Below are positions 7,994-44,435 of a DNA stretch of 61,600 nt, in pieces. How positions within the stretch are numbered: position 1 is the stretch's first letter; every line of letters starts with the position of its first letter. A program made the translations under genes and the position numbers. The notes beneath the pieces were generated by a model that did no database searches, was not told the origin of the DNA, and worked only from the letters and a program-made list of their open reading frames with translations. This DNA is from Acidobacteriota bacterium (GTDB lineage: Bacteria; Acidobacteriota; UBA6911): contig JAFGTD010000011.1 of the NCBI GenBank assembly GCA_016934295.1, forward strand, positions 1-61,600, written 5' to 3'.

Positions 7994-8956
7994 ATGGGTG
8001 CTTTTATGAATACGTCTCTCTATAGAAACATATTTCTGCTCTTTTGCATTCCGACACTTCTGTCTGTTCCGGGATACTGCTATTCACCCGAAAAAGCCGA
8101 TTTCTCAATCTCGATAAAGAATTTACAGATTCCCTACAGGGAATTTGCCGTTTTCGCCGTTCCTGGAGAGAATCTGGTTCTGGATGTCATGGATAATGAG
8201 AGCGCCCATGAATACAGTATCGAAACGGCACTGCTCGCCTTTCTAAAGAAAAAAAGGTCCTGGGAAGTGACTGTGCCGTTAAAAAAAGGAAGATACTCGA
8301 TTGCCGTCCATCGTATCGGAACGGACCAACGTATTCTTTTGAATATATTTTCAACCGTCCCAAGCTCCGGAATCAGGGACGGGCATTTAAACGGCTATAG
8401 GATCGGCAAGTATCCCGCTGTTCTGACCGGGAAACCTTTTGTGACGAAACCTCCCGCGCATTATATTGAAGTGACAAGAGAGAATAAGGATGTTGCAATA
8501 TCCCCGCATTTTAAGCTTAAGCAGTTCCTATGCAAGCAGCAGGGATCCTTCCCGAAATATCTGGTTCTGGATGAAGTTTTGATTCTGAAACTTGAGATGA
8601 TCCTGGAAGAGGTTAACAGCTGCGGATACCCAGCCGACACGTTTCACATAATGAGCGGATACCGTACTCCCTACTACAATAAGGCGATCGGAAATGTTGC
8701 GTACAGCAGGCATTTATGGGGAAAGGCGGCGGATATATTCATCGATCGGGATCCCCTCGACGACAGGATGGATGACCTGAACAAAGACGGCACAGTGAAC
8801 AAAAAAGACGCGAAAATTTTATTCGATATTGTTGAAAGCCTTACAGAGAAAAAATGGTATCAGAAATTTCTCGGCGGGCTCGGTCAATATGGATCGAATC
8901 CGTCCCATGGGCCCTTTGTTCATATAGATTCCAGAGGCTACAGAGCGAGGTGGTAA
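7994..8956 (+). CDS. Peptidase M15A family zinc peptidase (YcbK/MepK-like) with signal peptide
   Basis: SGYRTPYYN, SRHLWGKAAD and FVHIDSRG motifs; lies directly downstream of the L,D-transpeptidase. Confidence 0.85.
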   Translation: MGAFMNTSLYRNIFLLFCIPTLLSVPGYCYSPEKADFSISIKNLQIPYREFAVFAVPGENLVLDVMDNESAHEYSIETALLAFLKKKRSWEVTVPLKKGRYSIAVHRIGTDQRILLNIFSTVPSSGIRDGHLNGYRIGKYPAVLTGKPFVTKPPAHYIEVTRENKDVAISPHFKLKQFLCKQQGSFPKYLVLDEVLILKLEMILEEVNSCGYPADTFHIMSGYRTPYYNKAIGNVAYSRHLWGKAADIFIDRDPLDDRMDDLNKDGTVNKKDAKILFDIVESLTEKKWYQKFLGGLGQYGSNPSHGPFVHIDSRGYRARW

Positions 8957-8973
8957 GATTCAGGAACTCTGCT

Positions 8974-10198
8974 ATGGATATTCAATTGAAGGCGCTGCTG
9001 ATTGATGTGCGGTCATCTTTCTATCGTATGGAAAGATTCAAACTGGGAAATTTCTGGGGGCCCGTCGATCTGGGCCTGTTTCTTTCCGGGAAATATAAAA
9101 GCCTGAATATCGGGGTCGGACTGCTGGCGGGATCTCTTTTCCCCGGATCCAACCGGCTGATTTTCTGCGGTTTTTCCCCCTGTTGGGGAGGATTTTTCAT
9201 TTCATCCATGGGAGGAGCCGGACTCATATTCGACAATCTCGGCCTCAATATGATCTCCATTGTCGGGAAAACAGACAGCCCGTCCATTCTCTATCTGAAT
9301 CGAATTCACGGCGAAGAGATCGAATTGAAACTGGTGCCGATTGATGTGTTCCGGTATTTTCGACCAGCGAGCCGCTGAAAAGCTCAATCACCACGCCGAT
9401 GCTTATGGATTTGATGCAATCTCGATCAGCGGAGTTCTTTCCTGGTTGATGGAGTGTCTGATTGAAAAACATGTTTCTGCAAAGGATCTTGGGATCAGGA
9501 ATACCCCCGTATTTTCATTGAAGGAATTTGATGCTGTCGGCACGTCGAATCATAATGCGGACGTCGGCGTGGAACTATTGGATTCCATCATTGAAAAGCG
9601 CGCCATCCTCGACTTATCTGCCGGCGCGAGAAAATTTGCCCGTTCTTTAGCCCGGGAGAAGGGGCACAGGATTACGGATGCATTTGTTTATAACGCATTC
9701 GCCGGGAAAGGATGGATAGTTCCCAATCAATATTGGACGCCGGGTGTTCTTTCCCCGATGGCCATTATGGGGAAGTACTATATGGATTATGGGAAAGAAT
9801 TTCTGCCGCCAAGGGAATTGGGGAAGAGAAACGCAGCCAGATTTTTCAGCGAATTGATTCTCGATAATTCAGGCTACTGCCGGTTTCATCGAGGCTGGGC
9901 GGAAGAAATGCTGCCGGAAATTATCGGTTCTCTTTTCGGCATGAAAGATGCATTCTGCAACGGTATTCGTCAAACCGCCAGTCGTATTAACAGCCGGAAT
10001 GTGTCCGTATACTGGGAATCGGAAAGAAATGTCGATTTTATTTATTATTTTTTGAAAAGAAAATATACGGTAGACGGCAATCAGGACACTCAATTGGTGA
10101 AATGGATTCAACGATTCGATTCTGATAAACATGAGGCCGCATTAAGTTACTGGTATGAGATTCATAAGGGAATCCAGGAATCATTAAGAGAATTCTGA
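8974..10198 (+). pseudogene. GAPOR-like (glyceraldehyde-3-phosphate:ferredoxin oxidoreductase, AOR family) gene with internal deletion and frameshift near 9345-9350
   Basis: The N-part (8974-~9348) has GVGLLAGSLFPGSNRLIF..SPCWGGFFISSMGGAG. The C-part, in another frame, has ADAYGFDAIS and DNSGYCRFHRGW. Both resemble archaeal GAPOR as I recall it, but the central region is absent. Confidence 0.75.
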
Positions 10199-16452: not shown

Positions 16453-18615
16453 ATGGATATAAAATCCATCTCGCGAAAGGTAACCGGCAGATTTCGCGCC
16501 AACGGCACACAGCCGGCTCGTTTTGGCACATTCTCAGGAGTTTTCACGCCGGACCTTCTATGCATTCTTGGCGTCATAATGTATCTCAGACTTGGGTGGG
16601 TTGTCGGAAACACCGGTCTGCTGGGGGCTTTGGCTATAATTGTAATGGCTAAAGCCGTCACAATCTGCACCGGCCTGTCAATGTCATCCATCACGACAAA
16701 CATCAAGATCGGTCCGGGCGGGGCCTATTCCATCATCTCAAAATCACTCGGCTTGGAAGCCGGCGGCAGTATAGGGATTCCCTTTTATATATCACAGACC
16801 TTATCGGTCTCTTTATATATAGTCGGCTTCACAAGTGGGTGGATCCGGGCATTTCCTTCACACCCACCGATATTGGTTTCACTTCTTACATGGCTTCTAT
16901 TGCTGGGAATTTCCTACATAAGCGCTCATTTTGCGATAAAGATACAATATGTAATCATGGGGATCATCGGGCTGTCACTCTTTTCTTTCTTTTTAACCCC
17001 CAACAGACCCATCCCGGAAATACCGATGCTCGGCAGCTTTGAGGATGGAGGCTTCTGGGCTACGTTCGCAATCTTCTTCCCGGCGGTAACGGGAATCATG
17101 GCGGGATCAAACATGTCAGGAGAGCTGGTTAATCCACGCAGATCCATCCCCATGGGGACGTTAAGTTCCATTGGCGTCGCTATGATTATCTACGTTGCAT
17201 TGGCTTATATGTCTGCCCGATACATTCCTACGGGTGAGTTGCAGTCCAACTTTACTGCAATGGTTGATAATGCCCTCATGCCTTCGCTGGTATTGTGCGG
17301 GATATTGGCGGCAACATTCTCGTCGGCATTGGCAAGTCTTGTCGGCGCCCCAAGGATACTGTCGGCATTGGCCGAACAGAAGACAGTTCCCTTGTCCAAA
17401 TTCTTTTCGGTAAAAGCAGCCAATAACGAACCGCGCAACGCCACTATCTTTACCGGCGTGATTATTCTCGTATCAATCCTTATGGGCGACCTCAATGCGC
17501 TGGCATCTTTGATCACCATGTTTTTCCTTATTACTTACGGGACCTTGAACCTGGTGGTGTTTTTGCAGCAGAACATGAATATGATCAGTTTTCGACCGAC
17601 ATTTAAAGTGCCAAAAGTCGTCCCCCTGGCTGGGGCGGCAAGCTGCCTGTTAATCATGTTTCTGATCAACCCGGTTTTCAGCTTCATTGCCATCATTACT
17701 ATAGTTTTCCTTTACGGTTGGCTGACTCGCCGGGGATTACAGGCTGATTGGGGGGATATCCGTGGCGGTATGTTCCTGGTGCTGGCGGAAAGGGCGTCGC
17801 GTCTGGCGGCCAAGTTCCCGCGTCATCAGATTTCGTGGAAACCGGACCTGTTGATTCCGATTGACGATCCGAAAGTATGGAGCGGCTCTCTACTGTTTAT
17901 TCGCAGCATAACCCATCCTTCCGGAAGCATATTCGCTTTCACGGTTAAAGATACCGACGTTGAACAAACCAATACAGATCTGAAGGAACTTCTGGCACCG
18001 CTGTCCAGGGAGCAAATACTTATCAACTCCACCGTGATCGAAGACGGTCGGTTTCTGCATGGGGCAAAAATGGTCATTCAAACACTCCGTGGAGGTACCT
18101 TGCGTCCCAACAGCCTGTTTCTCACTGCAGGCAGCAACTCCCAGAAGGACGCCAATATTATCCAACTCGCTAAATACGCTGCCCAATCAAAACTTGGAAT
18201 CATCCTTCTCAATCAACATCCACGCGTAGCCTTTGGAGTTCAGAAGGACGTCAATATATGGCTCAGGGATGAGAGCCCCAACTGGCATCTGGCCATGTTG
18301 ATCGCGCTGCAGATCCACCAGAACTGGGACGGCCGATTGAACCTGATTACGGTTTCGCCTGACAAGTCGCAAAAAAAACGTCTTTATGCTTTTTTGGAAT
18401 ACCTGTCCGATCAGGCGCGTTTGCCCTCTATTACCGAGCTCTGTGTTCTTGAGGGAAAATTCCTTGAAGCAATGCCCGATGCACCCAGAGCGGACATTAA
18501 CATCTTTGGTATAGCACCAGAGATATCCTTGGATTTAGTGCGTCGTATTGGTGCGACGGCCAACTCATCCTGTCTTTTTGTCGGAGATTCCGGCCAGGAG
18601 AGTGTGCTCGTGTGA
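16453..18615 (+). CDS. Cation-chloride cotransporter (SLC12/CCC-like, APC superfamily)
   Basis: FGTFSGVFTP, GGAYSIISKSLGLEAGGSIG, FFPAVTGIMAGSNMSGEL, ~12 TM segments and a cytoplasmic C-domain starting WKPDLL. Confidence 0.9.
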   Translation: MDIKSISRKVTGRFRANGTQPARFGTFSGVFTPDLLCILGVIMYLRLGWVVGNTGLLGALAIIVMAKAVTICTGLSMSSITTNIKIGPGGAYSIISKSLGLEAGGSIGIPFYISQTLSVSLYIVGFTSGWIRAFPSHPPILVSLLTWLLLLGISYISAHFAIKIQYVIMGIIGLSLFSFFLTPNRPIPEIPMLGSFEDGGFWATFAIFFPAVTGIMAGSNMSGELVNPRRSIPMGTLSSIGVAMIIYVALAYMSARYIPTGELQSNFTAMVDNALMPSLVLCGILAATFSSALASLVGAPRILSALAEQKTVPLSKFFSVKAANNEPRNATIFTGVIILVSILMGDLNALASLITMFFLITYGTLNLVVFLQQNMNMISFRPTFKVPKVVPLAGAASCLLIMFLINPVFSFIAIITIVFLYGWLTRRGLQADWGDIRGGMFLVLAERASRLAAKFPRHQISWKPDLLIPIDDPKVWSGSLLFIRSITHPSGSIFAFTVKDTDVEQTNTDLKELLAPLSREQILINSTVIEDGRFLHGAKMVIQTLRGGTLRPNSLFLTAGSNSQKDANIIQLAKYAAQSKLGIILLNQHPRVAFGVQKDVNIWLRDESPNWHLAMLIALQIHQNWDGRLNLITVSPDKSQKKRLYAFLEYLSDQARLPSITELCVLEGKFLEAMPDAPRADINIFGIAPEISLDLVRRIGATANSSCLFVGDSGQESVLV

Positions 18616-19579
18616 AAAATGCGGGCCAGATATCCGTTTTTGACGTGGAGATATTATCCGCCCGGGCGCCTGGTTTGCCCTCCACCGTGTTGTCATAGAA
18701 ACGCTGGGTCGGGTATGCAAAGTCTATGTCATCTTCGGTTGAAAAAGCCTGGAGGATATCCTCCCAAATGTTTTGTGTCGTTCCCCGCCGCTTCCTCGGA
18801 TCGCACAGATGTCGAATGGTCAGCAAAACGCCGCAGTCTTGAACAGAGGTGTAAACGGTCGGAGTCAGCGTAGTGTAGAAGATCATGAACCTGCGCGCCG
18901 CTTTGAGAAGGCGGTCCGCCGCGGCCTGGCTCATTTCCTCCCCGTGCTTGTTGGCGATGTCCATGAGCAGCTTTTTGGCCTTGCGCCAATTGCTCTCAAA
19001 GGTGACAAGCACCGGGATCTCGTTCCATATGTGCTGGAATCCCTTGCTGTAGTTGGCCGGGTTGTCGCTGAAAATTCGCCCGTTATTCACGTGGACTATG
19101 CGGCCCGTGCTCTGGTCCGCATCCACCCAGTTTCCGATTTCGAGCAGCGTGAACTGGAAAATGCGAAGGTCGATGACATCACCGGCCATATCCCCGATCT
19201 GCACGCGATCCCCGACTTCAAACGGGTGGCGCCAGATAATGAAGATCCAGCCGACGAAATTTGCGACAAGCTCTTTGAGCGCTATGGCCAGCCCGGCCGA
19301 TAGGATGCCGAAATAGGTTACAAGCGAACCGACGCCTTCCAGCCAGATCCGCGCCACCAGGATGGTTGCTATTATAACCGTGAAGTACAGACTTGTCTTT
19401 TTCCACCGATAGCGGATTTTGATGTCGACCCAGCGGCGGAACGCCACGGCCAGGACTATCCAGCGTATCGCGGCGAATCCCACGATAATAAGAAACGAAG
19501 CCAGCAGTTTCCCCGATGTAATGGCTTCGATGCCGGTGTGCTTCTGCAACCATTCCGTCAACGGCTGTGATATCTCCAT
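18497..19579 (-). CDS. mscS: Small-conductance mechanosensitive channel (MscS family)
   Basis: Hydrophobic N-terminus, GLAIALKELVANFVG, PFEVGDRVQIGDMAGDVIDL, IDFAYPTQR. The tail runs antisense into the convergent gene. Confidence 0.9.
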   Translation of the reverse strand: MEISQPLTEWLQKHTGIEAITSGKLLASFLIIVGFAAIRWIVLAVAFRRWVDIKIRYRWKKTSLYFTVIIATILVARIWLEGVGSLVTYFGILSAGLAIALKELVANFVGWIFIIWRHPFEVGDRVQIGDMAGDVIDLRIFQFTLLEIGNWVDADQSTGRIVHVNNGRIFSDNPANYSKGFQHIWNEIPVLVTFESNWRKAKKLLMDIANKHGEEMSQAAADRLLKAARRFMIFYTTLTPTVYTSVQDCGVLLTIRHLCDPRKRRGTTQNIWEDILQAFSTEDDIDFAYPTQRFYDNTVEGKPGARADNISTSKTDIWPAFFTRAHSPGRNLRQKDRMSWPSHQYDALNPRISLVLYQRC

Positions 19580-19614
19580 TACAACCCCGGATGAATCATG
19601 TTCCAGTCAGAAGG

Positions 19615-20103
19615 TTATATTCCCTTAACATATATGTTTTTTGAATCTCCCGGTGCGTAAAAATCTTTCAGTGTTGCTTCGAGTCGATAGGCGTTGTTGA
19701 TGTAAAATGCCCGGGTGGGCGCATACTGATTCCGCGAAGAGGTCTCCACATAAATACGGCGCCCGTTCATTGCATGGATCGCTTCTTCGCTTTTCTTGAG
19801 AAGCTCTTTGCCGATCCTTTGCCCGCGGAGATCCTGATCCACGGCGATCCAGTAGAGATCAAAGCTGCATTGCGTTCCGGAAATCGGCCCGAAACACGCA
19901 TAGCCGACCGTCCGGCCGTTCATTTCGGCGAAAATGAAAAAATAGCCGCTTTTTTCTCCTTTTGAAATCCGGTCGTCGACAAGTTCCGCCGCTATGTCTA
20001 TTTCTTCGGGATTAAAAAAACCGCTCGATTCCGCTATCTTTCGTACTTTGTCCGAGTCGGCAGGCTCCACTTTGTAACGGTATTCAATTCTTGCCGCTTT
20101 CAA
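19615..20103 (-). CDS. GNAT family N-acetyltransferase
   Basis: LYWIAVDQDLRGQRIGKELL (acetyl-CoA motif A), TRAFYINNAY; probable TTG start at 20103 with GAGG upstream. Confidence 0.88.
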   Translation of the reverse strand: MKAARIEYRYKVEPADSDKVRKIAESSGFFNPEEIDIAAELVDDRISKGEKSGYFFIFAEMNGRTVGYACFGPISGTQCSFDLYWIAVDQDLRGQRIGKELLKKSEEAIHAMNGRRIYVETSSRNQYAPTRAFYINNAYRLEATLKDFYAPGDSKNIYVKGI

Positions 20104-21871
20104 TTCTGTTTTTCCTCTTTTCGGGCATATTCCGGAAATGGTATTTCGCCCACATTCCCTTGAAAAAATTGCGTGCATTAACGCCGAGCGAACGCGCTTT
20201 GTACCCCCCCTCCTGAACGACCAGTGTCGGGCGCCTCAACGATCCGATCAAGGCGCCGTTTTGCTCGAAATCTTTAGCGCTCAGGCTCCAGGTGCCCGTT
20301 GGGTCCCCTTTGGCGGTGTCCAGTCCCAAAGCTACTACCAGAAATCGGGGATTAAACTTCTGAATTCTCTTCAGGGCTTTCCCGAGGACTTCCCTGTACA
20401 GGGTTCCGTCCACCTTTTCCGGTAAAGGATAATTAACATTGAATCCTGCGCCGGCGCCTTCTCCTGTTTCGTCGGAAAAACCTGTAAAGTAGGGGTAGGC
20501 GAATCGCGGATGCCCGTGAATCGAAACCGTTAAAACATCGCTTCTTTTGTAAAAGATATTCTGTTGCCCGTTCCCGTGATGGAAATCGACGTCCAGAACA
20601 GCCACCTTCCCGTGAGCGCTGAGATAATGGGCCGCAATCGCGGCAGAGTTGAAATAGCAGAAGCCGCCGAACGCCCGTCTCTCGGCATGATGTCCCGGAG
20701 GACGAACCAGCGAATAGGCTATCGGGTACCCTTCCAGAATTTTGTCGGCAGCGGTCATGGTGCAGTCCATGGCCCGCTTTGCGGCCAGAAAGGCGTTGTG
20801 GTTCAGCGGGGTGAATGTATCGATGCAGTAATATCCGGCACGAATGGGCAGTTCGACCGGCGGGCGGGTTGCATTGCGGATCGGGAAAACATAAGGATAG
20901 ATGGATTTGTTCTCCGGCACATTCTCACAGACTCTTTTAAGATAATCGACAAAGGCGCTTTCATGCACCGCCCGGATATTTCTTTCCGAATAAGTGTGCG
21001 GTTCGAAAGGTTCGAATAAGCCGCTCGGAAGAATTTCCCTGAGGATCGATTTTATGCGGACCGGAGACTCGACATACCCCCGGTCGTTGATGTGGTGGAT
21101 ATCATGCTTGTCATTAATAACCAAGGCGATGGACATTACGCCCTTATTGTTAACCTTAATCTCCGGAAGGATTTCCTTTCGGGTGTAACGGCGGTCGCGG
21201 AATCGAACCGGGTCGTCCTTAAAGGAATCCACTACCATTTCAATATAGGATTTCGGACAGACGTTGCCGTATTTTCTTTCCAGAATCGCCCGTACAACCT
21301 CCCTGGCCTTTTCCCGTGACAATGGCTTGCCCAATCCCAGCCCGTCGAACATCAGGTACGGAGGACAATCGCCGCCTTCGCGAACAGGTGTTTCATAGGC
21401 GGTATTGCTTACGGGCCGGATCCCGTAGCGTTCGTAAAAACGCAGGCGCGAGGCATTCTGTTTGAGATCCTCCTTGTCGCGACACAATGTCGGATCGTCC
21501 GGCAGGCATTCAAAAAAGATCCCGATAGTGCCCAGGGCAAGCGCCTCTTCCCGCACCTTGTCGTACAGCGCACTGCCGATACCCCTTCCGGTTACAAGTC
21601 GCGCGGAGGAAATAAAATCCAGGTAACAGAAATTGAGGTCCGTGGCGTGCATCAACAGAGCGAATCCCTTAATTCGCCTGCTGGAATCATCGGCCACGAA
21701 CAGGATAGTCCGGAAGCGATGTTTCAGGGGATTGACAAGCTGATCGTTGATTTTTGCAATATCGTTTTCGTCCAATCCCGGAAACTGTTCGTGAAGAATT
21801 TTCTTTACCTGCTCGATAGTTTCGATGCTGGATGGAATCGAACTGTCGTAGATACGGCGTATTCGGAACAT
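20084..21871 (-). CDS. GNAT domain fused to a histone-deacetylase-fold (acetylpolyamine amidohydrolase-like) domain
   Basis: N-terminal YLDFI..TGRGIGSALY and RLRFYERYG; C-terminal RPPGHHA, GGFCYFN, LDVDFHHGNG, GLDT and QEGGY. Confidence 0.9.
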   Translation of the reverse strand: MFRIRRIYDSSIPSSIETIEQVKKILHEQFPGLDENDIAKINDQLVNPLKHRFRTILFVADDSSRRIKGFALLMHATDLNFCYLDFISSARLVTGRGIGSALYDKVREEALALGTIGIFFECLPDDPTLCRDKEDLKQNASRLRFYERYGIRPVSNTAYETPVREGGDCPPYLMFDGLGLGKPLSREKAREVVRAILERKYGNVCPKSYIEMVVDSFKDDPVRFRDRRYTRKEILPEIKVNNKGVMSIALVINDKHDIHHINDRGYVESPVRIKSILREILPSGLFEPFEPHTYSERNIRAVHESAFVDYLKRVCENVPENKSIYPYVFPIRNATRPPVELPIRAGYYCIDTFTPLNHNAFLAAKRAMDCTMTAADKILEGYPIAYSLVRPPGHHAERRAFGGFCYFNSAAIAAHYLSAHGKVAVLDVDFHHGNGQQNIFYKRSDVLTVSIHGHPRFAYPYFTGFSDETGEGAGAGFNVNYPLPEKVDGTLYREVLGKALKRIQKFNPRFLVVALGLDTAKGDPTGTWSLSAKDFEQNGALIGSLRRPTLVVQEGGYKARSLGVNARNFFKGMWAKYHFRNMPEKRKNRIESGKN

Positions 21872-21879
21872 TGGTATTC

Positions 21880-22878
21880 CTAGCGGATGTGTCCTGATGA
21901 ATAAGAAACGAGAGTGCTTTCGAGAATACGTTCAATCATGCGGCTGTACCTTAAGCCCGCGCGATGAACCGCAGCCGTAAAACCTGCGTCGGGCGAAATG
22001 CATGGATTGGCGTTGATTTCAATCACCCATGGTTGCAGATGCGAATCGATACGAAAATCGATCCGTGCATACCCCCGCAAACGAAAAATATCCCAGCAAT
22101 GCCTGGAAATATCTCCCAGCTGCTCGAGGAGAAAAGCCTCATTTTCGGGGAAATCGAAATTTCTTGGAGTATAACTATATTCGAACGACCCTTTTTCCCA
22201 CTTGGCGTCGTAGCCTACAATTTTCGGCTTGCCGTCAGGAAATTCTTTGAAGAGGATTTCAGCGGGCGGAAGGACCTGCACTCCCTGTCTGTCCTCCAGA
22301 AGCGACACATTTATTTCCCGACCGTCAATAAAGGATTCAATAAAACAGCTCCCGTACCGGTTTGATTTATCCTGAAATGCCTGCGCAAGATTTTCCCTGG
22401 CGTAGACAATAGATGCGTCGTCCAGGCCCACGGACGCGTCCTCCCAGGCGGGTTTGATGATATAGGGGGGAGCGAAATCCATGTCCGAACCGGCCGGCCC
22501 GCTCCCGGCCATCCAGGCCGGCGTGGCTATCCCCGCATATCTCAGGCGTTCCTTGGCCAGTATTTTCCCGGTAGTTACATAGAGGCTTTCAGATCCCGAT
22601 CCCGTAAACGGAATGGATAAATACTCCAGCAATGCCGGGGCAAAGTGTAGGAACCGGCCGGTACCGGCCAAAGACTCCACCAGGTTGAAAACCAGATCGG
22701 GCTTTATCCGGCCGAGATCGGCCTCTGCTTTATGCAGATCCAGAGAAACAGGCAACAGGGATGTTTTATGCCCCAGTTCAATCAGGGAGTTGCGGACCGC
22801 CTCCACCTGGGCCAGAACATCCTGCTCGTCTTTTCCCGAATCGGCGGAAACGTCGGCATATAAAATTGCAATATTCAT
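21880..22878 (-). CDS. D-Ala-D-Ala ligase-like ATP-grasp protein (copy 2)
   Basis: DLVFNLVES, IPFTGS, IIKPAWEDASVG, ESFIDGREINV, YARIDFR, EINANP; its ATG overlaps the upstream stop (TGATG). Confidence 0.88.
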   Translation of the reverse strand: MNIAILYADVSADSGKDEQDVLAQVEAVRNSLIELGHKTSLLPVSLDLHKAEADLGRIKPDLVFNLVESLAGTGRFLHFAPALLEYLSIPFTGSGSESLYVTTGKILAKERLRYAGIATPAWMAGSGPAGSDMDFAPPYIIKPAWEDASVGLDDASIVYARENLAQAFQDKSNRYGSCFIESFIDGREINVSLLEDRQGVQVLPPAEILFKEFPDGKPKIVGYDAKWEKGSFEYSYTPRNFDFPENEAFLLEQLGDISRHCWDIFRLRGYARIDFRIDSHLQPWVIEINANPCISPDAGFTAAVHRAGLRYSRMIERILESTLVSYSSGHIR

Positions 22879-23900
22879 CACTGTACCGAAGCCTGAAGCC
22901 CCGGTTTTGGCACGGCAGGGGACCCGTCACCGAGTCGTGACAGCGCGCTTTCCATAATCATTTCGAAGAGGCGGACATAGGAAATCCCCGCCAGACCGCA
23001 GATAATGGGAAGGTCGGAATGTTGCGGATGAATCCCGGCCAGCGGATTCACTTCAATCACATTCGGGATGCCTCGGGCGTCGGTCCTCAGGTCTACGCGT
23101 CCGGCATCGCGGCAATTCAATCCGACCCAGGCCCGCAGCGCCGTTTCTGCGGCGTCCCCGGCCAGAGCGTCGTCAACCAGGATATAGTCGATACAAAGCT
23201 CGCATTCTTCCTTGTTGGCATAGGAATATACGTCTGCTTCGGCGTTTCCTTTCAGGACAATTTCCATGACGCCCAGGGCTTCGGCGCGACTTCCTGTTCC
23301 GACAATTGCAACTGTAAACTCGCGCCCGGGCAGAAAAGTTTCCACCAGGACCGGCTGTTTGTATCCGGTCAGCAGATTACGGCACACCCGGTACAATTCC
23401 GCTTTGCCCGTAATCCTGGATGCAGAAGTGATCCCTTTCCCCGTCCCTTCGGCTACGGGTTTGGCGAATAACGGATAGGGAAGCCCGACTTTGCCTATAT
23501 CTTCTTCCGTGTGGATTTCGGCAAAATCCGGTGTTGGAATACCGAGATCCCGCAACACTCTCTTGGTCATCCCCTTGTGCAGCGTAAGAGACAGCACAAG
23601 GGGATCGGAGAACGTGTAGGGAATATCGTAGGCATCCAGGAGAGCGGGGACCTGCGCCTCTCTGCCTATGCCGCGAATCCCCTCGGCAATATTGAACACC
23701 AGGTCCCATCGGTCTCCATTGCAGAGCCTTTCCGTCAGATTCCGGATATTGCCGATTCTTTCGGTGGCATACCCCAAGCTACGAAGGGTCTGTTCAATGG
23801 CTTCAATTGTGTCGATCCGGTCAAACTCCGCCGTTTCCTCCTCGCTGTACCCCATATCAAGGTAACTTTGGCGGAGGTCGTATGTTAATCCGATCTTCAT
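22878..23900 (-). CDS. D-Ala-D-Ala ligase-like ATP-grasp protein (copy 1)
   Basis: Real start is MKIGLTYDL at 23900 (ATGA overlap with the kamA stop); DLVFNIAEG, KPVAEGTGKGI, ETFLPGREFTV, GRVDLR, EVNPLAG. Confidence 0.88.
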   Translation of the reverse strand: MKIGLTYDLRQSYLDMGYSEEETAEFDRIDTIEAIEQTLRSLGYATERIGNIRNLTERLCNGDRWDLVFNIAEGIRGIGREAQVPALLDAYDIPYTFSDPLVLSLTLHKGMTKRVLRDLGIPTPDFAEIHTEEDIGKVGLPYPLFAKPVAEGTGKGITSASRITGKAELYRVCRNLLTGYKQPVLVETFLPGREFTVAIVGTGSRAEALGVMEIVLKGNAEADVYSYANKEECELCIDYILVDDALAGDAAETALRAWVGLNCRDAGRVDLRTDARGIPNVIEVNPLAGIHPQHSDLPIICGLAGISYVRLFEMIMESALSRLGDGSPAVPKPGLQASVQ

Positions 23901-25318
23901 CGCAGTTCTTCCCTTTGCAGGTCGCCGGATTGAATTATTCCCCGTCCCGGAGAAGCCGGATCGGGATAGCGATACAGATCGCCCCTGTAATTTTTCAATA
24001 CAAGAGTTGCGCCGTCGTGGTTTTCTACATAATTCGGCAGCAGGGGAATCTTGCCGCCTCCTCCGGGGGCGTCGATCACGTAATGGGGAACGGCGTAGCC
24101 GGTCGTGTGCCCTCGAAGGCCGGCTATAATTTCCAAGCCCTTGTCCACCGTAGTGCGAAAATGAGAGGAGCCCTGAACCGGATCGCATTGATAGAGGTAA
24201 TAGGGCCGAACCCGGCATTTGAGCAGACCCTGATTGAGCCGGGTCATGATTTCGACGGAATCGTTGACGCCTCTGAGCAGGACCGTCTGACTGCCGAGGG
24301 GAATGCCGGCATCGGCCAACCGGTTGCAGGCCAGCGCCGTTTCCGGCGTCAATTCGTCCGGATGCGTGAAATGCAGGCTCATCCATAAAGGATGATATCT
24401 GCGCAGCATCCTTACCAGGGCAGGGGTGATGCGCTGCGGTAAAACGGCAGGCACTTTGCTGCCGATCCGGATTATCTCAACATGATCGATGGAACGCAGC
24501 CGGCGCAGGAGCCATTCGATACGGCTGTCCGGAAGCGTAAGCGGATCGCCTCCGGACAGGATTACGTCGCGAATCTCCCGGTGTTGTTCGATATATGCGA
24601 CGGCATTTTCCCATTGCTGCATGTTGTATCCGTATTCTCCTCCATGATTTCCCACCAGGCGCGAACGGGTGCAGTAGCGGCAATACACGGAGCAGAAGCC
24701 GGTTGTCAGAAATAAAACACGGTCGGGATAGCGATGTACCAGCCCGGGTACCGGAGAGTCTCCATCCTCGTTGAGGGGATCCGCCTCTTCTCCCTGTAAT
24801 ATTCGGTTTTCTTCCCCGGACTTGACGACCGTACGGCGGAGGGGCTGCAGGGGATCATTGCGATCCAAAAGACTCGCGTAATAGGGAGTAATGGCAACAG
24901 GCAGCAATCCCCGATACTCGTCAACCGCCCGGCGTTCATCCTCTGAAAGCCGGATGATCTTTTCAAGACCGGCCAGATCCTTGATTCGGTTGGCCAGTTG
25001 CCAGCGCCAGTCATTCCATTCGCGGTCCGATATGTCCGGAAAGTACTCCTTCCGAAAATACAGGCTGCGTTCACCCGCAGCAAATGCGGCGGGATTGGAT
25101 TTGCAGGCGCGTTTTAAAGTGTCGGTCTGTACGGTAAAGGAAAATTTCCCCGTATAAACCGAACGACGATCGGCCTTGTTCAACTTTTGCTGGTGTCGTT
25201 TTAGGAGGGAATCCTTGGAGGAGGGAGCCACGCTGTAAAGAACCTCGGGCGAATGGGTGTATGTCCATCCGGATCCCGGAGGTTCGTCATTTTCAGTAGA
25301 TGAGATGTCGTCGTCCAT
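23897..25318 (-). CDS. kamA: KamA-family radical SAM/PLP aminomutase (lysine 2,3-aminomutase-like)
   Basis: WNDWRWQL, LVHRYPDRVL, CSVYCRYC (CxxxCxxC), SGGDPL, PYYLYQCD and DAPGGGGK (PLP lysine). Confidence 0.92.
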   Translation of the reverse strand: MDDDISSTENDEPPGSGWTYTHSPEVLYSVAPSSKDSLLKRHQQKLNKADRRSVYTGKFSFTVQTDTLKRACKSNPAAFAAGERSLYFRKEYFPDISDREWNDWRWQLANRIKDLAGLEKIIRLSEDERRAVDEYRGLLPVAITPYYASLLDRNDPLQPLRRTVVKSGEENRILQGEEADPLNEDGDSPVPGLVHRYPDRVLFLTTGFCSVYCRYCTRSRLVGNHGGEYGYNMQQWENAVAYIEQHREIRDVILSGGDPLTLPDSRIEWLLRRLRSIDHVEIIRIGSKVPAVLPQRITPALVRMLRRYHPLWMSLHFTHPDELTPETALACNRLADAGIPLGSQTVLLRGVNDSVEIMTRLNQGLLKCRVRPYYLYQCDPVQGSSHFRTTVDKGLEIIAGLRGHTTGYAVPHYVIDAPGGGGKIPLLPNYVENHDGATLVLKNYRGDLYRYPDPASPGRGIIQSGDLQREELR

Positions 25319-25434: not shown

Positions 25435-25464
25435 AAAGTATGCGGCATTTTTTTGCATTGTCAA
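25435..25464 (-). promoter_or_regulatory. Putative sigma70 promoter of the kamA operon
   Basis: On the - strand: TTGACA (25464-25459), 18-nt spacer, TACTTT (25440-25435). Confidence 0.5.
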
Positions 25465-25584: not shown

Positions 25585-26292
25585 TTATTCCTGATCCCTG
25601 TAAATGTCTCTAAGGATGCTTTCGACACGGGCAGCGTGTCTGGAATTCAGGCTCCGGATAAGCACTTCAAAATTACAGGCCTTGTCGGTTTGCTCTTTAA
25701 GCTGGACAACCGGCGCAGTTCCGGACGATGCCCATGGAATGGAAAGCACTTCGCGCGTAAGTATGGTCTGAAGCTTCTCGGGCGTATCGTTTTTGGGGAT
25801 GCACAGGTGAATGCGATAATAATCCGATGCCGTTTCTTCCGAACGTTCCGGAACCACTTCTCCGCTCAGCCGGGAATAGGGTATGCGGGCAATATCCCCG
25901 TTATCGGTTCTAATGGTTACATGTGTCATCCTCCGTTCAATGATCTTTCCGGAAAGATCGTTGAGTCGAATCCTGTGATTGACATGAAACTGTTTGCGAA
26001 TGGAAACGACAATGCCTGCAATAATATCGCGCAGGACAAACCAGATAAAAAGCATTGCCAGAAGCGCGAGAAGGGAAAAAAGGATGATTGGATAGAGGGA
26101 GGTTGATGCAAACCGGCGCTGCAGGAGCCAGAGTGCATACAAAAGCCAGACCGCAAATGCAAAGCCCGGCAGGTAAGGTTTTATTCGCTCTACCCTCGAG
26201 GATCGGTGTGCCGCGGCGCGGATCAACTTATTGCCGGTCGACATCACTATCCACACCAGAATGCCCAGAAATAGCTCCAGGAAAATCTTCAT
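25585..26292 (-). CDS. MscS-family membrane protein (divergent)
   Basis: Three hydrophobic segments, RDIIAGIVV, beta-domain RIRLNDLSGKII..TIRTDNGDIARIPYSRL; ATGA overlap with the upstream gene. Confidence 0.75.
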   Translation of the reverse strand: MKIFLELFLGILVWIVMSTGNKLIRAAAHRSSRVERIKPYLPGFAFAVWLLYALWLLQRRFASTSLYPIILFSLLALLAMLFIWFVLRDIIAGIVVSIRKQFHVNHRIRLNDLSGKIIERRMTHVTIRTDNGDIARIPYSRLSGEVVPERSEETASDYYRIHLCIPKNDTPEKLQTILTREVLSIPWASSGTAPVVQLKEQTDKACNFEVLIRSLNSRHAARVESILRDIYRDQE

Positions 26293-29200
26293 AGAATCTG
26301 TTTCTCGCTTAATACTTTGATAATAAAAGGTTCCAGAAACATATTGATGACGAGTACGCCCCTGCCTCGTTCCTTAATCAGTCCACACCGCTGCAGTGTC
26401 CGGATCATCGATTCGAGAACCGGTTCCTCGAGTCCGGTTATGCGACCCAGCTGTTCGATCGTCAGCCGCTTATGCAGCGCAAAAGCAGACAGGAGAACCA
26501 GCCTGTCATCATCCAGTTGTCGAAGGGTCGTAAGGTTGGGCGTTTCGGGAGTGCTTATTTCCACAGTATTGCCGGACAAACGCTGGATGTTATGGAGCCA
26601 GGCGTTGAGCGCCATTCCGGGGTTGCCCTCGGAGTGAGTAAAGTGGGAGTCGAACAGCGATGCTGTTCTTAATTCCGAAAGACTTTTTTCGTCTCTTCCA
26701 TTCCAGCGGAATTGCAGCCCGCTGGATCTATGTCGACGGAGAATCATATCCTTCAGTTCTTCGGTGCTGAAAGGGGAAAGGCGGACGGTGCTGATAAATT
26801 TCTGGTGTATAGGCTCCAGAGAATTGATCAAAGCAAAGGAGTGCGGATTGGTGTTGACGATAAAGAGGATCCGGTCGCTGAAATCGTCCATCATCTCTCC
26901 GATGGTTCGGATAACCTGTGTTCCGTCTCTATGCTGTTCGAACCATAATTCCAGATCGTGAATTACCAGAACGGTTTCGTGCGGCAATGCGGAAGCGATT
27001 TCCCGTAATGTCCCGTGATACCCCGCCGCCTGCTCCACGATTCTTGCAAGATCCTCGACGTGCATGGAGCCTTCATTCGGGGCAAATATATGGATCACGT
27101 TGTTTTTCGGAAACAGCTTGCCGGTTATATATTTGCAGAACGTTGTTTTCCCGGCATTCCGGTCGCCCAGAACGAGAATGCCTCCCTTGTAGCCGTTTTT
27201 GTAATGGTCTACAGCCTGTTTCATCCTTGTCTCATCTTCATCTCTTTCAATGAAAAATTCCGTCCCGATACTCGATCGGCTGCTGAACAGATTGGTATAA
27301 AAACGCGGGAGCGCCTGCATTACTTTGCTTTCCGGGGTAATGGACCGGACGAGATCGAGAACCGATGCATTTCCCGAATTTGCCTTCCCCCTGTTTTTCA
27401 GCTTCCGGGCAAACAGCAGGCCTTCGCTTTTCGAATACAAAATACGGATAACGTATCGTTCCAGGGAGCGGATTCCCGTGTTCCACAAATTTCCGAAAGT
27501 AGTGAGCACTTTCTGGCCGGCGTATTCACGCAGTATCTCGGCCATCTCGCCCGAGCTTTTTTCTATCTTCTCCGGAGCGAGCGGTTCGAATGCATCCGAA
27601 AGCAGCTGTCTCATTTCCTCTCTCAGGGAACTCTTGAAATTATCCACTGCTTCCTCTTCCATACGGAGGCTTTGTATGTTGTCGCGCAGGATCCCTTCCA
27701 CGGTCTTCCGTCCATCCGGAGCGCCTACATCCATATTCTGGAAACTGAACCGTGTAAGGTTGACAAGGTCCTTGATCCTGAATCCCAGGTTCCCGAGCAA
27801 TTCATTGCCGGAAATGAGGAATTCCTGTAAAGGGCTGATCATACGGGATTCCAGGATACGGTCGACCAGACGTATCGCGGGTATCTCGGTTTCCTCCTTA
27901 TCGTCTCCGACCAGCTGTGTTTCAGGAAGGGATCGCGCCAATTCAAGTACATAATCGCGCAATTCCTCTATGCCCTCTTCTATGTCAACCGTCGTGTCTA
28001 TCTCGCATCGAAGATTGTCTGTAGCGGCTGTTTCGCCTTTCAACATAGAGTCAAGGTTTGTGAGAAGGTTTCTGACCGCGTGTGTTATCTTTAAATCCAC
28101 CTGCTGGAGGATCCGGCGCAGAAGATCCTCAGCCTTGTCTTCAGTCCTGCATCGTATTGCCGCAATCTGAATATCGAGGCGGATTTTATTTGTAACGCGC
28201 TCCATGAACACGCACCAGCGATCGGTAAATTTACGGTTTTCGATTGCGAGAGTGGAATAAAATTTCTTACTTCTTGGTCTCGGTGGCCGGAATCGACGAT
28301 AGGGCGTTTTTTGGAGGCTGCCGGCCATGGCGATAATGTCTTCTCTGAATTCAATTTGCAGCCTGTCTCGGAAGGATTCGGCGGATTGGTTCAACTCTTT
28401 GGCGCAATCGTCTATGCGGGATGCCAGATCCTCTTGAAGGCGGAGGATGTCTCCTTCGGCAGAAGGGAATTTATTTTCGAGGCTTACGATGGAATCCAGC
28501 AGGGAAAAGAAGAGCGACTTTAGATAGTTGAGATGGGCGATTTGGTATTCCTGAAGTTCCTTCAGATAATCAACAAGGAAGAGTTGCCGTGTATCGTACA
28601 GGTAGTAGCGGGCTATCTTCCTGTAGGAAATTGTTTGGGAGACCGGATGTCCCGAAATTGTAAACGCCGTACGTTTCCATAATTTAATCAATCGCCCATA
28701 AACCGAATCCGTTTTGTCCGGAACGAATTTATTCTCAGCGTACTGCACCCGAAGGCGCCGGGGGAGTTTCAGGTAGTATTTATCGAACCAGTCGACATAC
28801 CATCCGATTCCCGATGCCAGGGATTCATTATGCTTGGATGCAAGCTTTTCCTGTATCTGTTCGAACAGACGGCTGCAACTGAATGCGTAGTCGTTCTTTA
28901 TTTTCAGCAGCGTTTTCTCGTACCGGTAGGCGTCTTTATATTCCAGGGCCTTACCCAGCGAAGTGCAAACCGACTCTATAGTTCTGCGGAAATTTTCAAT
29001 ATTCTCTATGTTGTCGGTAAAACATGGATGGATCGCCTTTTCATAGAAACGGTTCAGCACCCTGCTTCCGGAGATTTGGATTTTTTGGATATCTCCAGCC
29101 AGAACCGGATCCTGCAAGGCGGGAATTTCAGACAGTGCAACGGGCATTTCCGGCGTTGCTTCCGAATCCTTCGGCTTATGAGGGGCCCGGACCACACCGG

Positions 29201-31352
29201 CATCAACCCTCTCGAAACCGGGAGCTCCATGGAGAACGGCTGCGGTTCCTAAACTTGACAGTAAATCGCTGTAATTCGAGAAACTGTCATCCAGGGAGGG
29301 CATCTGGTCTTCATCGATGCCAATAAAGGTCAGATCCGTCTGTGAGCTCTCCTGTCGGATGATCTCGAATTCGCTGATGGATGTGTCCCGGTTATGGATT
29401 ATTTTTATATCCATATCCATGCGGTAATCTTCGAGAATCCGGGCCAGGGAGCGGTGGATCTGTTCTTTGCGTGAACGGTCGTAATTAATGACCAGCAGCC
29501 GTAAGGATGCTTTATTCCAGTAATTGGAGGTAGTTAAATGACGCAGAAGAACGAGCGAGAAGGCGAGATTTGTTCCTGTGCCGCTCCACCAAAGGTCGAT
29601 GGTATCTCCCTTCCCGAATTTTCTCTCGGCATTGTGACTCAGGAGTACAATATTGAATCCGCTCCGATCGTAGGATGCAAGCAGGCGACTGAATGCGGAT
29701 CGGTTTTCAGGCTTGCTGCTCCATCCCATTAGGATTGTGTTGGGTTCGATCCCGTAGAAACCGTAAAGCTTTGATACTTCCTCCATTCCCTTGTAGAAGT
29801 CGCTACATTGATACCGGAAGGAGAAAGCGCTCGGGGTATCGGCGTCATCGTATAAGGGATCGCTTTCAATCCTGCGGAGTCCCTGTTCGGGTGTTTTGAC
29901 CAGCTCAAAGCTGGAAAGAATTCCGAGGCGGCCTGAAATTGCCTTGCCGAATTCAACAAGATGACTTCGCTGTTGTTTGTTGCCGCTGTACATGATGATA
30001 TTCGGACGCCAGTTGGACTCCTGGATTTTTTCGAGACCCAGGCGGGTGATGCCCGCCTTTACGATCGTGGCCCACACGCCGTTCCATGCGTCGCCCGACT
30101 CCAGAGTCAGTTCTTTCCGCTTCAGGTATAAAAACAGCAGCCCGAGGATCAGTGTGGATGCCAGGAAAGCCATCAGATCCAGTTGAATCATGACTAGGAT
30201 GCATGCAGTCGCTCCAAGAAAACTGATCCATGCCGGGGTTTTGAACTCGGGACGAAAATCGGAACTGGTCCAGGTTTCGAAAGCGGCACTCAGATTGATA
30301 AATCCGTAGGTCATTATGAAGAATATCGATACGATCCTGGCGATCACATTGAGTTCACCGATCAGGATGCCTCCTTCGGCGATGACAAACGTGAGCAACA
30401 GGGCGTTTCGGGGTTCCTGAAGTTTTCCTGAGGATTTTGCAAAGAACTTCGGTACGATATTGTCCTGGGAGGTTGCCTGGAGGATGCGCGGAGCGCCGAG
30501 AATACTGCCCAGAGCTGAAGAAAGCGTAGCCCCCCAGATCCCGGCAATTACAAGTTCCGGGGAAAGTGAGATTTTCAGAAGTATTCCAGGATCCTCGGCA
30601 AGAAGTTTGGGATCCACGGTATAGGAGAAAAATACCGCCATTCCTATGTAAACGACAAAACCCACGGTGATTGCCGTAATTGCCCCTATGGGAATCGATT
30701 TTTTGGGATTGCGCAGATCGCCGGACATGGAAACTCCCGCTTCAAATCCGGTGACCGCCGGGAAAAAGATTCCGAAAAGAACCATCAGGGGAACTGTTCC
30801 GGCGGGATTTTCCAGGAAAGGGCGGGCGGGCGCGAATTCATGGCTGCCGAAAAAGACCGATATCAGGGACAGGCCGATGGCGGCCATGATGAAGTACTGT
30901 GTTTTGATTGCAAGGGAAGTGCTTATCAGGGTGACCGTTGTTACTACCAGCAAAATGATTGTTCCCGCCAATCGAATCGAATTCCTGGTTGCTTCGATCT
31001 CCCAATATCCCAGAAAACTCTCGGCGAAACCTATGAGGTAGAGGCTGACGCTGAATGACAGCCCGACAAACAGGGCGATGCCCAGGGTTCCTCCGAGCGG
31101 GAGGCCCAGGGACCGGGAGATCATGTAATAAGTCCCTCCACCCTGCACGCGTTTGTCGGTGGCGATGGAAGAGACACTGAGGCCGGTAGTAACGGAAATG
31201 ACATGGGCGACAATTATTATGCCGATTGTCGGGATGAGACCGGCCTGTCCGATGATGGACGGAAGCCTCATATACATGATCACGCCGAGGATGGTCAGGA
31301 TCGAGGGAGTGAACACGCCGCTGAATGTGCCGAACTTTCTGGTGTCTGCCAT
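26289..31352 (-). CDS. SLC12/CCC-like transporter fused to a long helical region, a P-loop (STAND-like) NTPase and a winged helix; 1687 aa
   Basis: KFGTFSGVFTPSILTILGVIMY, GGGTYYMISRSLG, FFPAVTGFEAG, NWRPNII; C-terminal Walker A GDRNAGKT, Walker B-like VLVIHDLE, SEGNPG and a wHTH-like end. Confidence 0.85.
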   Translation of the reverse strand: MADTRKFGTFSGVFTPSILTILGVIMYMRLPSIIGQAGLIPTIGIIIVAHVISVTTGLSVSSIATDKRVQGGGTYYMISRSLGLPLGGTLGIALFVGLSFSVSLYLIGFAESFLGYWEIEATRNSIRLAGTIILLVVTTVTLISTSLAIKTQYFIMAAIGLSLISVFFGSHEFAPARPFLENPAGTVPLMVLFGIFFPAVTGFEAGVSMSGDLRNPKKSIPIGAITAITVGFVVYIGMAVFFSYTVDPKLLAEDPGILLKISLSPELVIAGIWGATLSSALGSILGAPRILQATSQDNIVPKFFAKSSGKLQEPRNALLLTFVIAEGGILIGELNVIARIVSIFFIMTYGFINLSAAFETWTSSDFRPEFKTPAWISFLGATACILVMIQLDLMAFLASTLILGLLFLYLKRKELTLESGDAWNGVWATIVKAGITRLGLEKIQESNWRPNIIMYSGNKQQRSHLVEFGKAISGRLGILSSFELVKTPEQGLRRIESDPLYDDADTPSAFSFRYQCSDFYKGMEEVSKLYGFYGIEPNTILMGWSSKPENRSAFSRLLASYDRSGFNIVLLSHNAERKFGKGDTIDLWWSGTGTNLAFSLVLLRHLTTSNYWNKASLRLLVINYDRSRKEQIHRSLARILEDYRMDMDIKIIHNRDTSISEFEIIRQESSQTDLTFIGIDEDQMPSLDDSFSNYSDLLSSLGTAAVLHGAPGFERVDAGVVRAPHKPKDSEATPEMPVALSEIPALQDPVLAGDIQKIQISGSRVLNRFYEKAIHPCFTDNIENIENFRRTIESVCTSLGKALEYKDAYRYEKTLLKIKNDYAFSCSRLFEQIQEKLASKHNESLASGIGWYVDWFDKYYLKLPRRLRVQYAENKFVPDKTDSVYGRLIKLWKRTAFTISGHPVSQTISYRKIARYYLYDTRQLFLVDYLKELQEYQIAHLNYLKSLFFSLLDSIVSLENKFPSAEGDILRLQEDLASRIDDCAKELNQSAESFRDRLQIEFREDIIAMAGSLQKTPYRRFRPPRPRSKKFYSTLAIENRKFTDRWCVFMERVTNKIRLDIQIAAIRCRTEDKAEDLLRRILQQVDLKITHAVRNLLTNLDSMLKGETAATDNLRCEIDTTVDIEEGIEELRDYVLELARSLPETQLVGDDKEETEIPAIRLVDRILESRMISPLQEFLISGNELLGNLGFRIKDLVNLTRFSFQNMDVGAPDGRKTVEGILRDNIQSLRMEEEAVDNFKSSLREEMRQLLSDAFEPLAPEKIEKSSGEMAEILREYAGQKVLTTFGNLWNTGIRSLERYVIRILYSKSEGLLFARKLKNRGKANSGNASVLDLVRSITPESKVMQALPRFYTNLFSSRSSIGTEFFIERDEDETRMKQAVDHYKNGYKGGILVLGDRNAGKTTFCKYITGKLFPKNNVIHIFAPNEGSMHVEDLARIVEQAAGYHGTLREIASALPHETVLVIHDLELWFEQHRDGTQVIRTIGEMMDDFSDRILFIVNTNPHSFALINSLEPIHQKFISTVRLSPFSTEELKDMILRRHRSSGLQFRWNGRDEKSLSELRTASLFDSHFTHSEGNPGMALNAWLHNIQRLSGNTVEISTPETPNLTTLRQLDDDRLVLLSAFALHKRLTIEQLGRITGLEEPVLESMIRTLQRCGLIKERGRGVLVINMFLEPFIIKVLSEKQIL

Positions 31353-36710: not shown

Positions 36711-36725
36711 TGAACCCTCCTAAAC

Positions 36726-37955: not shown

Positions 37956-38043
37956 CGATGACTCCTGGCCCGCACCCGCACCATAGTTGCGTTCGTTTTT
38001 ACGGGCGGGAAGTGCGGACTAAATCGTTGCATCTGTTCGTGCC

Positions 38044-38952: not shown

Positions 38953-39058
38953 TACGCCTCTCCATGAGGCAGAATTCCTGCTGCCGTATTGTGAATTCCA
39001 GACGCCGTTTTTGCCGGATCGGTCCGGTTGTTCGTAAAGCGGTCCGGGACTGTTCGGG

Positions 39059-40417: not shown

Positions 40418-40423
40418 AATCGC

Positions 40424-42996: not shown

Positions 42997-43000
42997 GACG

Positions 43001-44425: not shown

Positions 44426-44435
44426 AAAAATACAA

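Follow-up and report, generated by a model that had tools for sequence, protein, structure and literature searches.

A six-gene operon in a 61,600-nt stretch of DNA from an Acidobacteriota bacterium (GenBank assembly GCA_016934295.1, contig JAFGTD010000011.1, positions 1 to 61,600; the whole stretch is hereafter the window) combines a lysine 2,3-aminomutase (KamA), two ATP-grasp ligases (AG1 and AG2), a GNAT acetyltransferase fused to a deacetylase, a small GNAT and an MscS channel. All parts belong to known families, in a combination that is new and very widespread. We propose that the enzymes make an acetylated β-lysine amide or peptide that would act as a cytoplasmic solute or counter-ion for turgor and ion balance, a reading to which, taken whole, we assign a probability of about one half. 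The pathway part, taken alone, is well supported and considerably firmer. A preliminary description of this DNA had called the pathway undescribed, and a full-text literature search (supplements excluded) likewise found no description of the gene set. The operon is laid out as follows:

25437–25464, minus strand: candidate sigma-70-like promoter, TTGACA-16-CATACT, 10 of 12 consensus matches.
23897–25318, minus strand: KamA/AblA-like lysine 2,3-aminomutase, 473 aa, with a ~90-aa N-terminal extension.
22878–23900, minus strand: AG1, Ddl-family ATP-grasp ligase, 340 aa, the better conserved of the ligase pair.
21880–22878, minus strand: AG2, paralogous Ddl-family ATP-grasp ligase, 332 aa, assigned by profile and alignment.
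20084–21871, minus strand: fusion of a GNAT (residues ~1–220) with a zinc deacetylase of the acetylpolyamine amidohydrolase (APAH) type (~250–575), 595 aa, assigned by profile and model.
19615–20103 (alternative ATG at 20178), minus strand: small GNAT of the Dde_3044/2R7H family, 162 aa from the TTG.
18497–19579, minus strand: MscS-family channel, 360 aa, the final operon gene, outside the conserved module.

The six open reading frames (ORFs) run in one direction on the minus strand (18497–25318) and form a single operon with the junctions that the preliminary description had given, as coordinates and overlaps read directly from the sequence confirm. The KamA stop and AG1 start overlap as ATGA, the AG1 stop and AG2 start as TGATG, and the ATG of the fusion gene follows the AG2 TAG by 8 nt. 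For the small GNAT two starts are possible, a TTG at 20103, which has AAGAGGA ahead of it, and an ATG at 20178; the gene would share 20 nt with the 3′ end of the fusion gene from the former and 95 nt from the latter. A 35-nt gap separates its stop from the MscS ATG, and the last 119 nt of the MscS ORF (18497–18615) overlap the 3′ end of a convergent cation-chloride cotransporter (CCC) gene. No convincing terminator was seen inside the operon. The sigma-70-like site lies in the 266-nt gap upstream of kamA; this upstream region holds five promoter-like sites against a mean of 6.9 in shuffled sequence, and the promoter is a candidate only. The sigma-54 promoter consensus has no match across the window, and no riboswitch was found in the kamA leader, where the sole hit was a chance match to rliD (E 0.45). 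Two metatranscriptome runs of the source study yielded short contigs only, of which one (152 nt) is identical to window positions 21506–21655 in the fusion gene; DNA carry-over is possible, and this single contig is too little to show expression.

Conservation was assessed by scanning one genome per species for the fusion gene, which yielded at least 566 loci, the best 80 of which were kept for locus analysis. KamA, AG1, AG2 and the small GNAT lie within 10 kb of the fusion gene in 48 of these 80, with all five enzyme genes on one strand in 43 of the 48 complete loci (median span 5.6 kb); 12 further loci are partial, mostly at contig ends, and 20 carry the fusion gene alone. The sources include Acidobacteriota, Dehalococcoidia, Calditrichaceae, deltaproteobacterial lineages, Ignavibacteria, Planctomycetota, Omnitrophota and Woeseiaceae. 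Because the five genes occur together in 48 of 80 loci from so many phyla, the arrangement is far beyond chance, and the earlier expectation that the gene set is kept together in other genomes is borne out. Six of the fusion-alone loci had ~10 kb of sequence on either side, and the five genomes taken from them all carry the KamA-AG1-AG2-GNAT block elsewhere when searched genome-wide.

Two phylum samples were searched with AG1 at a threshold of E ≤1e-40. In the sample of the window's own phylum, an AG1 homologue is present in 70 of 301 genomes (68 of 299 without the unpublished G054 and G157). A full-length fusion occurs in 10 of the 301, the window genome (G000) included, and 9 of these 10 also have AG1; the deacetylase domain alone was matched in six further genomes. 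The sample from the phylum of G005 (the genome of locus L071, titled Desulfobacterales) has AG1 homologues in 86 of 251 genomes, 50 of them at 47% identity or more, and weaker matches may include a paralogous ligase family. Full-length fusions are found in 14 of the 251, and 12 of these 14 also have AG1. Among 14 AG1 loci fetched from fusion-free genomes of the window's phylum, seven hold the four-gene set and the others subsets, with no fusion gene near AG1 in any of the 14. The conserved core thus comprises the four genes KamA-AG1-AG2-small GNAT. The GNAT-deacetylase is an accessory that occurs almost always in module-bearing genomes and is present in roughly one in seven AG1-bearing genomes. 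Of the six-gene unit in the preliminary description, these four genes form the core, with MscS left outside.

The window's operon itself seems to have a separate history. Three genomes of the same genus (G225, G295 and G305) have only a divergent module, with AG1 ~40% identical and no GNAT-deacetylase; the block order there is KamA-GNAT-AG2-AG1, with 30–47% identity in L113. The window AG1 is 64–69% identical to its best matches in the G005 phylum sample. Since the same-genus modules are divergent while the closest AG1 lies in another phylum, these comparisons suggest that the operon was acquired horizontally, possibly replacing a native copy of the module.

Pfam and NCBIfam searches agree with the family assignment of all six operon proteins. 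KamA scores 357.7 bits against TIGR00238 (cut-off 199.2) and has the Radical_SAM and LAM_C domains. Its best-scoring equivalog is AblA (TIGR03820; 484.3 bits, under the 525.4 cut-off), and it reaches 261 bits against EpmB (TIGR03821; cut-off 369). In an alignment of 452 bits to the lysine 2,3-aminomutase of Clostridium subterminale (2A5H), equivalents of C125/C129/C132, R134, D293, D330 and K337 are all present, and none of these seven positions varies among 54 module-linked homologues. We take the three cysteines to be the CxxxCxxC cluster motif, K337 to be the pyridoxal phosphate-binding lysine and R134 to bind the substrate carboxylate. Asp293 and Asp330 are said by Ruzicka and Frey to hold the ε-ammonium group of lysine, and are reportedly replaced in glutamate 2,3-aminomutase. 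As judged by alignment, KamA keeps every residue that marks an aminomutase for lysine, with its basic side chain.

The ligases match Dala_Dala_lig_C (Pfam) at 82.3 (AG1) and 80.3 bits (AG2). Against the Ddl model TIGR01205, with its cut-off of 245.65, they reach 105.2 and 102.3 bits in a whole-genome search (105.4 and 102.8 in a search of the window proteins), and the only Ddl above the cut-off in the genome, at 342.6 bits, is encoded on a separate contig, C126. The ATP- and Mg-binding residues K144, K215, R255, D257, E270 and N272 (Ddl numbering) are kept in both. Over 48 aligned sequences, K147, K230, R268, D270 and N285 of AG1 are invariant and E283 nearly so (each at least 95%), and K142, K226, R272, D274 and N289 of AG2 are each kept in at least 95%. 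The two proteins do not retain E15, S150 and Y216 of E. coli DdlB: S150 and Y216 become T and E in AG1 and A and W in AG2, which also has S281 replaced by A. The GGxSxE and LHG..GEDG motifs are likewise replaced, GGxSxE being present in the genome's own Ddl. We assume that the Glu15/Ser150/Tyr216 triad and Ser281 of DdlB are its D-Ala-site residues. Given the low Ddl scores, the loss of these motifs and residues and the true Ddl on C126, we predict with confidence that AG1 and AG2 are not D-Ala–D-Ala ligases, in agreement with the preliminary description.

The AlphaFold-type model of AG1 has a predicted local distance difference test (pLDDT) score of 92.1 and gives Z-scores of 30.7 to DdlA and 27–31 to Ddl/VanA structures, against ~25 for LysX/ArgX and 18.6 for PylC. 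The ESM Atlas returned only clusters named ‘D-alanine--D-alanine ligase family protein’. The N-terminal domain of AG1 contains the invariant acidic residues E25, D27, E73 and E81, which may form a site for a cationic substrate. Two observations on ligase fusions stand apart from these results. Apparent KamA-AG1 fusions, seen as long frames near AG1 in high-GC genomes, were rejected, as the ORF coordinates at L135 and L136 look like frame artefacts. On another contig of the window genome (G000:C277, L082:1360–3576), a paralogous Ddl-family ATP-grasp is fused to an M20 peptidase/deacylase domain in a protein of 738 aa, and comparable frames of 676–851 aa occur in several genomes; these represent another ligase-deacylase pairing and may inflate the low-identity AG1 counts.

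The small GNAT matches Acetyltransf_1 (PF00583) at 46.6 bits (cut-off 20.7) and aligns over its full length with 2R7H (Dde_3044; 134.7 bits, E 2.8e-38). The N-terminal domain of the fusion protein is under the Pfam cut-off here (20.9 against 27), while PF00583 and PF13508 are recorded on many of its homologues. Its AlphaFold model (pLDDT 89.5) is matched by Foldseek to GNATs, including Gcn5 and AAC(6′), with a probability of 1.00, and G97 and G99 of the acetyl-CoA motif R/Q-x-x-G-x-G/A are invariant; the predicted structure marks the domain as a GNAT by fold. Both GNATs have the acetyl-CoA-binding motif and fold, and they are not close paralogues of one another (hhalign probability 11%). Neither matches AblB (TIGR03827) at E ≤0.001, and a genome-wide search found no match at E ≤0.01 in this 93.8% complete assembly. 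As neither GNAT is AblB-like, the link to Nε-acetyl-β-lysine is one of analogy and not of homology, and the AblA/AblB homology implied by the preliminary description is not upheld.

A simpler account would be a plain Nε-acetyl-β-lysine pathway that happens to stand beside two cell-wall D-Ala–D-Ala ligase paralogues. It fits a KamA nearest to the AblA equivalog and the presence of a GNAT, and fails on each further count: KamA falls short of the AblA cut-off, no AblB homologue was found in the genome, the ligases have lost the DdlB triad and score below the Ddl cut-off with a true Ddl elsewhere, and the two ligases accompany KamA and the GNAT in different phyla. Contradicted by the KamA, AblB, ligase and conservation results alike, this account is barely credible.

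The C-terminal domain of the fusion protein matches Hist_deacetyl (PF00850) at 255.5 bits. Its closest solved relatives are acetylpolyamine amidohydrolases (245.6, 237.4 and 225 bits), compared with ~197 bits over two matched stretches for two-domain HDAC6 chains and no more than 118 bits for single-domain HDAC-type deacetylases. All 12 aligned sequences share H394, H395, D429, H431, D518 and Y557; we take H394/H395 to be the tandem histidines, D429/H431/D518 the zinc ligands and Y557 the catalytic tyrosine. The domain is predicted to be a small-molecule deacetylase of the acetylpolyamine type. The fusion protein as a whole keeps ~60–65% identity across phyla.

The same data bear on the idea that the ligases attach β-lysine to a macromolecule, such as an EF-P-like protein, a peptidoglycan stem peptide or a lipid, with the GNAT and deacetylase regulating the modification. 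EpmB, which supplies β-lysine for EF-P, is of the KamA family (the 261-bit match above), Ddl-family enzymes act in cell-wall synthesis, and a dcw cluster lies ~10 kb from the operon. Yet KamA is much closer to AblA-type aminomutases (484 against 261 bits) and keeps the LAM_C domain, the deacetylase is of a small-molecule type, and no conserved EpmA-like, Mur-ligase or Fem-type gene adjoins the module. Proximity to dcw genes is not conserved either, MraW being found only at L016 among the scanned neighbours. We consider attachment to a macromolecule very unlikely.

We favour a small-molecule product, and the enzymes suggest the following steps. KamA, for which homology and the active-site residues are clear, would turn L-lysine into β-lysine. 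An amide bond would be made by each of AG1 and AG2 by way of an acyl-phosphate, and the carboxylate or one of the two amines of β-lysine would take part in at least one of the two bonds; AG1, with its more conserved, acid-rich N-terminal domain, is the likelier β-lysine-binding ligase. The small GNAT would then cap one amine using acetyl-CoA, and the expected product is a small cytoplasmic N-acetylated β-lysine amide or (iso)peptide. In the subset of genomes with the GNAT/APAH-type enzyme, the window's among them, this enzyme may acetylate the product at a terminal aliphatic amine and deacetylate it again. By this reversible step the product would alternate between being a cation and being neutral or zwitterionic, or could be recycled. 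Besides the PylB/PylC, BlsG/BlsI and Ngg systems compared below, precedents for such logic are the acetyl protect-and-deprotect steps of arginine synthesis and the K+/putrescine exchange of osmotically shifted E. coli.

Where the product acts can be addressed from the neighbouring genes. The census covered 366 ORFs, the first 150 (L001–L045) scanned by Pfam and the others by tblastn with MscS, CCC and permease queries. Neighbours are heterogeneous, with sigma-54 activators at 10 of the 80 fusion loci, small winged helix-turn-helix regulators at 9, MarC at 5 and MFS at 4. No exporter is conserved across the 80 loci (MFS and MarC as above, EamA or LysE in single loci), which favours a cytoplasmic product. 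Five Dehalococcoidia loci (L015, L025, L062, L065 and L055) have a MarC-family gene between their small GNAT and deacetylase genes and a small winged-helix regulator upstream of kamA, apparently a cluster variant specific to this lineage.

A secreted bioactive β-lysine peptide, an antibiotic or signal whose N-acetyl group would provide self-protection or a pro-drug form activated by deacetylation, has to be weighed against this absence of an exporter. Aminomutase and ATP-grasp pairs occur in peptidyl-nucleoside antibiotic pathways (BlsG/BlsI), GNATs inactivate streptothricin-type β-lysine antibiotics, and the OrfE-CoA-glycylthricin complex appears at Foldseek rank 47 for the N-terminal GNAT. 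Against such a peptide, resistance and tailoring genes are no more conserved than exporters, the gene content is near-invariant, the fusion protein varies little between phyla, and between a quarter and a third of the sampled genomes of two phyla carry the module, a distribution typical of core physiology. We judge it quite unlikely.

In the window genome, we instead propose that the compound serves as a compatible solute or organic counter-ion for turgor and ion balance, a role suggested by the position of the operon: its last gene encodes an MscS, and genes for two CCC-type transporters and another MscS flank it. The genes that frame it are:

16453–18615, plus strand: prokaryotic cation-chloride cotransporter, 720 aa, convergent on the operon.
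25585–26292, minus strand: second MscS-family gene, 235 aa, upstream of the operon and in the same direction.
26289–31352, minus strand: 1687-aa protein with an N-terminal CCC/APC-type permease.

The MscS of the operon matches MS_channel_2nd (PF00924) at 47.4 bits (cut-off 20.2), and the genome's sole PF21554 CCC and two of its seven MscS genes flank the operon. The preliminary description had made MscS the dedicated release channel of the system and had suggested testing whether MscS and CCC genes co-occur with the enzymes. The release-channel proposal was not supported, as MscS lies outside the conserved system. Co-occurrence holds in part: tblastn places an MscS, CCC or APC-permease gene within 10 kb at 7 of the 80 fusion loci, and at none of 19 module-only loci. 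The seven are L004, L012, L025, L036, L046 and L052, plus L018, where the match is ~8.6 kb away. At L012 the deacetylase gene is followed after 4 nt by an MscS gene, its product 55% identical to the window's, and then by a CCC gene; this MscS is 36 aa shorter than the window's, whose tail may not be conserved. At L004 an MscS and an APC permease stand between AG2 and the deacetylase gene, at L025 an MscS-like gene follows directly downstream of the deacetylase gene, and at L036 and L046 CCC genes are found at 2–4 kb. Only 1 of 14 control genomes has a CCC match, so the proximity of MscS and CCC genes to the deacetylase gene seems unlikely to be accidental.

The osmolyte role is plausible on this modest enrichment of CCC and MscS genes by the deacetylase gene, together with the source of the DNA, a sediment metagenome with relatives in marine sediment, where one run has contigs that differ from the window at ~1.5–10 bases per 100. 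Several findings weigh on the other side. The MscS/CCC association holds in under a tenth of the loci, and the sigma-54 activators at 10 of 80 loci fit many kinds of non-osmotic regulation. Searches for Na+, c-di-AMP and lysine riboswitches gave no match in the window at gathering scores or in 17 upstream regions from other genomes, and the fetched records come from sites of many kinds. The 93.8% complete genome has no AblB homologue, and the small GNAT resembles RimI-type enzymes. Two ligases are not obviously needed for an ordinary osmolyte, and since most module genomes are without the deacetylase, a charge switch cannot be general.

Some of these points would suit a cationic β-lysine oligomer or pseudo-polyamine with no primary osmotic role, serving as a nitrogen reserve or as a polyamine surrogate that would bind nucleic acids or ribosomes or give stress protection, with acetylation and deacetylation controlling its charge and turnover. 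SSAT/SpeG and APAH control the charge and turnover of polyamines. The deacetylase domain is nearest to acetylpolyamine amidohydrolases, two ligases could alternate like the two active sites of cyanophycin synthetase, and the module is common in two phyla, most carriers showing no MscS or CCC link. This explanation has to contend with the lack of a conserved depolymerase or peptidase nearby and with the MscS/CCC neighbours of deacetylase genes that stand apart from the module (L012, L046 and L004). On balance we think it unlikely, while giving it real weight. A bolder form of the osmotic reading is a charge-switchable β-lysine pseudopeptide that would pass between a K+-replacing organic cation and a neutral solute through the acetyltransferase-deacetylase, in coordination with K+/Cl− cotransport and mechanosensitive release. 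This form is speculative and itself rather unlikely; if true, sediment anaerobes would maintain their ion and turgor balance by a hitherto unknown principle.

The proposed pathway resembles several known systems in part. In AblA/AblB, as in the window, a lysine 2,3-aminomutase is followed by a GNAT, and the window KamA is nearest to the AblA equivalog. According to PMC9337991, salt induces the AblA/AblB pathway in methanogens, and Na+ riboswitches sometimes control ablA. The window differs in having no AblB-type GNAT, a KamA below the AblA cut-off and no detected riboswitch, and in adding two ATP-grasp ligases and the GNAT-deacetylase fusion. The Ngg/AsnO pathway, reportedly described by Sagot et al. 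2010, makes the dipeptide osmolyte N-acetylglutaminylglutamine amide. There too acetyltransferase and ATP-grasp ligase activities combine to give a small N-acetylated peptide, which acts as a compatible solute. Ngg is a single GNAT/ATP-grasp fusion that acts on glutamine with an amidotransferase partner, whereas the window has Ddl-type ligases separate from the GNAT and β-lysine as building block; Pfam found no GNAT/ATP-grasp fusion or amidotransferase domain in the six operon proteins, no Ngg-specific model being part of the search.

In PylB/PylC (pyrrolysine) and BlsG/BlsI (blasticidin S), a radical-SAM rearrangement is followed by an ATP-grasp enzyme that joins the new carboxylate to an amine. 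The window enzymes belong to other families, with two ligases and no PylD or nucleoside genes. Ddl and VanA share the three-domain ATP-grasp fold of the ligases, and Ddl is their best match in both sequence and structure. APAH enzymes (PDB 9gkz, 6phr and 3q9b) are the best match of the C-terminal deacetylase domain, at 225–246 bits and with the catalytic residues kept; unlike them, the window protein has an N-terminal GNAT and occurs with a β-lysine module rather than with polyamine genes. The accessible part of a 2024 survey of bacterial deacylases (PMC11532494) does not mention the GNAT-deacetylase fusion architecture. The match of the small GNAT, Dde_3044 from Desulfovibrio desulfuricans (2R7H), is a structural-genomics entry deposited as a ‘putative D-alanine N-acetyltransferase’. 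As a cultured carrier of this small GNAT, its source organism may offer an experimental entry point.

Roughly one in four sampled genomes of one large phylum and one in three of another encode an AG1 homologue, yet the literature search found no description of the gene set. Its members carry annotations such as ‘D-alanine--D-alanine ligase’ and ‘histone deacetylase’, and the identity of the product would correct a common misannotation. Sediment and subsurface anaerobes would also be credited with a new β-lysine-derived metabolite, one that is probably a solute or organic cation, and a highly conserved GNAT-deacetylase fusion found in at least 566 species genomes would gain a function.

Other features of the window are minor. 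The 1687-aa protein upstream of the operon (26289–31352) has an N-terminal permease domain (PF00324, 164.5 bits) and a C-terminal part of ~1200 aa without a Pfam match, which contains a P-loop-like GDRNAGKT motif; the stop of its gene overlaps the start of the short MscS gene (25585–26292) by 4 nt. The dcw cluster occupies 35550–48227 on the minus strand (ftsZ, ftsA, ftsQ, murC, ftsW, murD and others) and has no ddl between murC and ftsQ. On the plus strand there are two overlapping short ORFs (8854–10198), the second of which matches the aldehyde:ferredoxin oxidoreductase C-terminal domains only in part (AFOR_C positions 108–196 of 385); this may represent a gene fragment or a frameshift. At the window start (1–6177, plus strand), an ORF of more than 2054 aa that runs off the edge combines TamB, POTRA and Omp85 in one frame, and 51898–59400 (plus strand) contains a BamA-like gene (943 aa) and a TamB-like gene (1298 aa).

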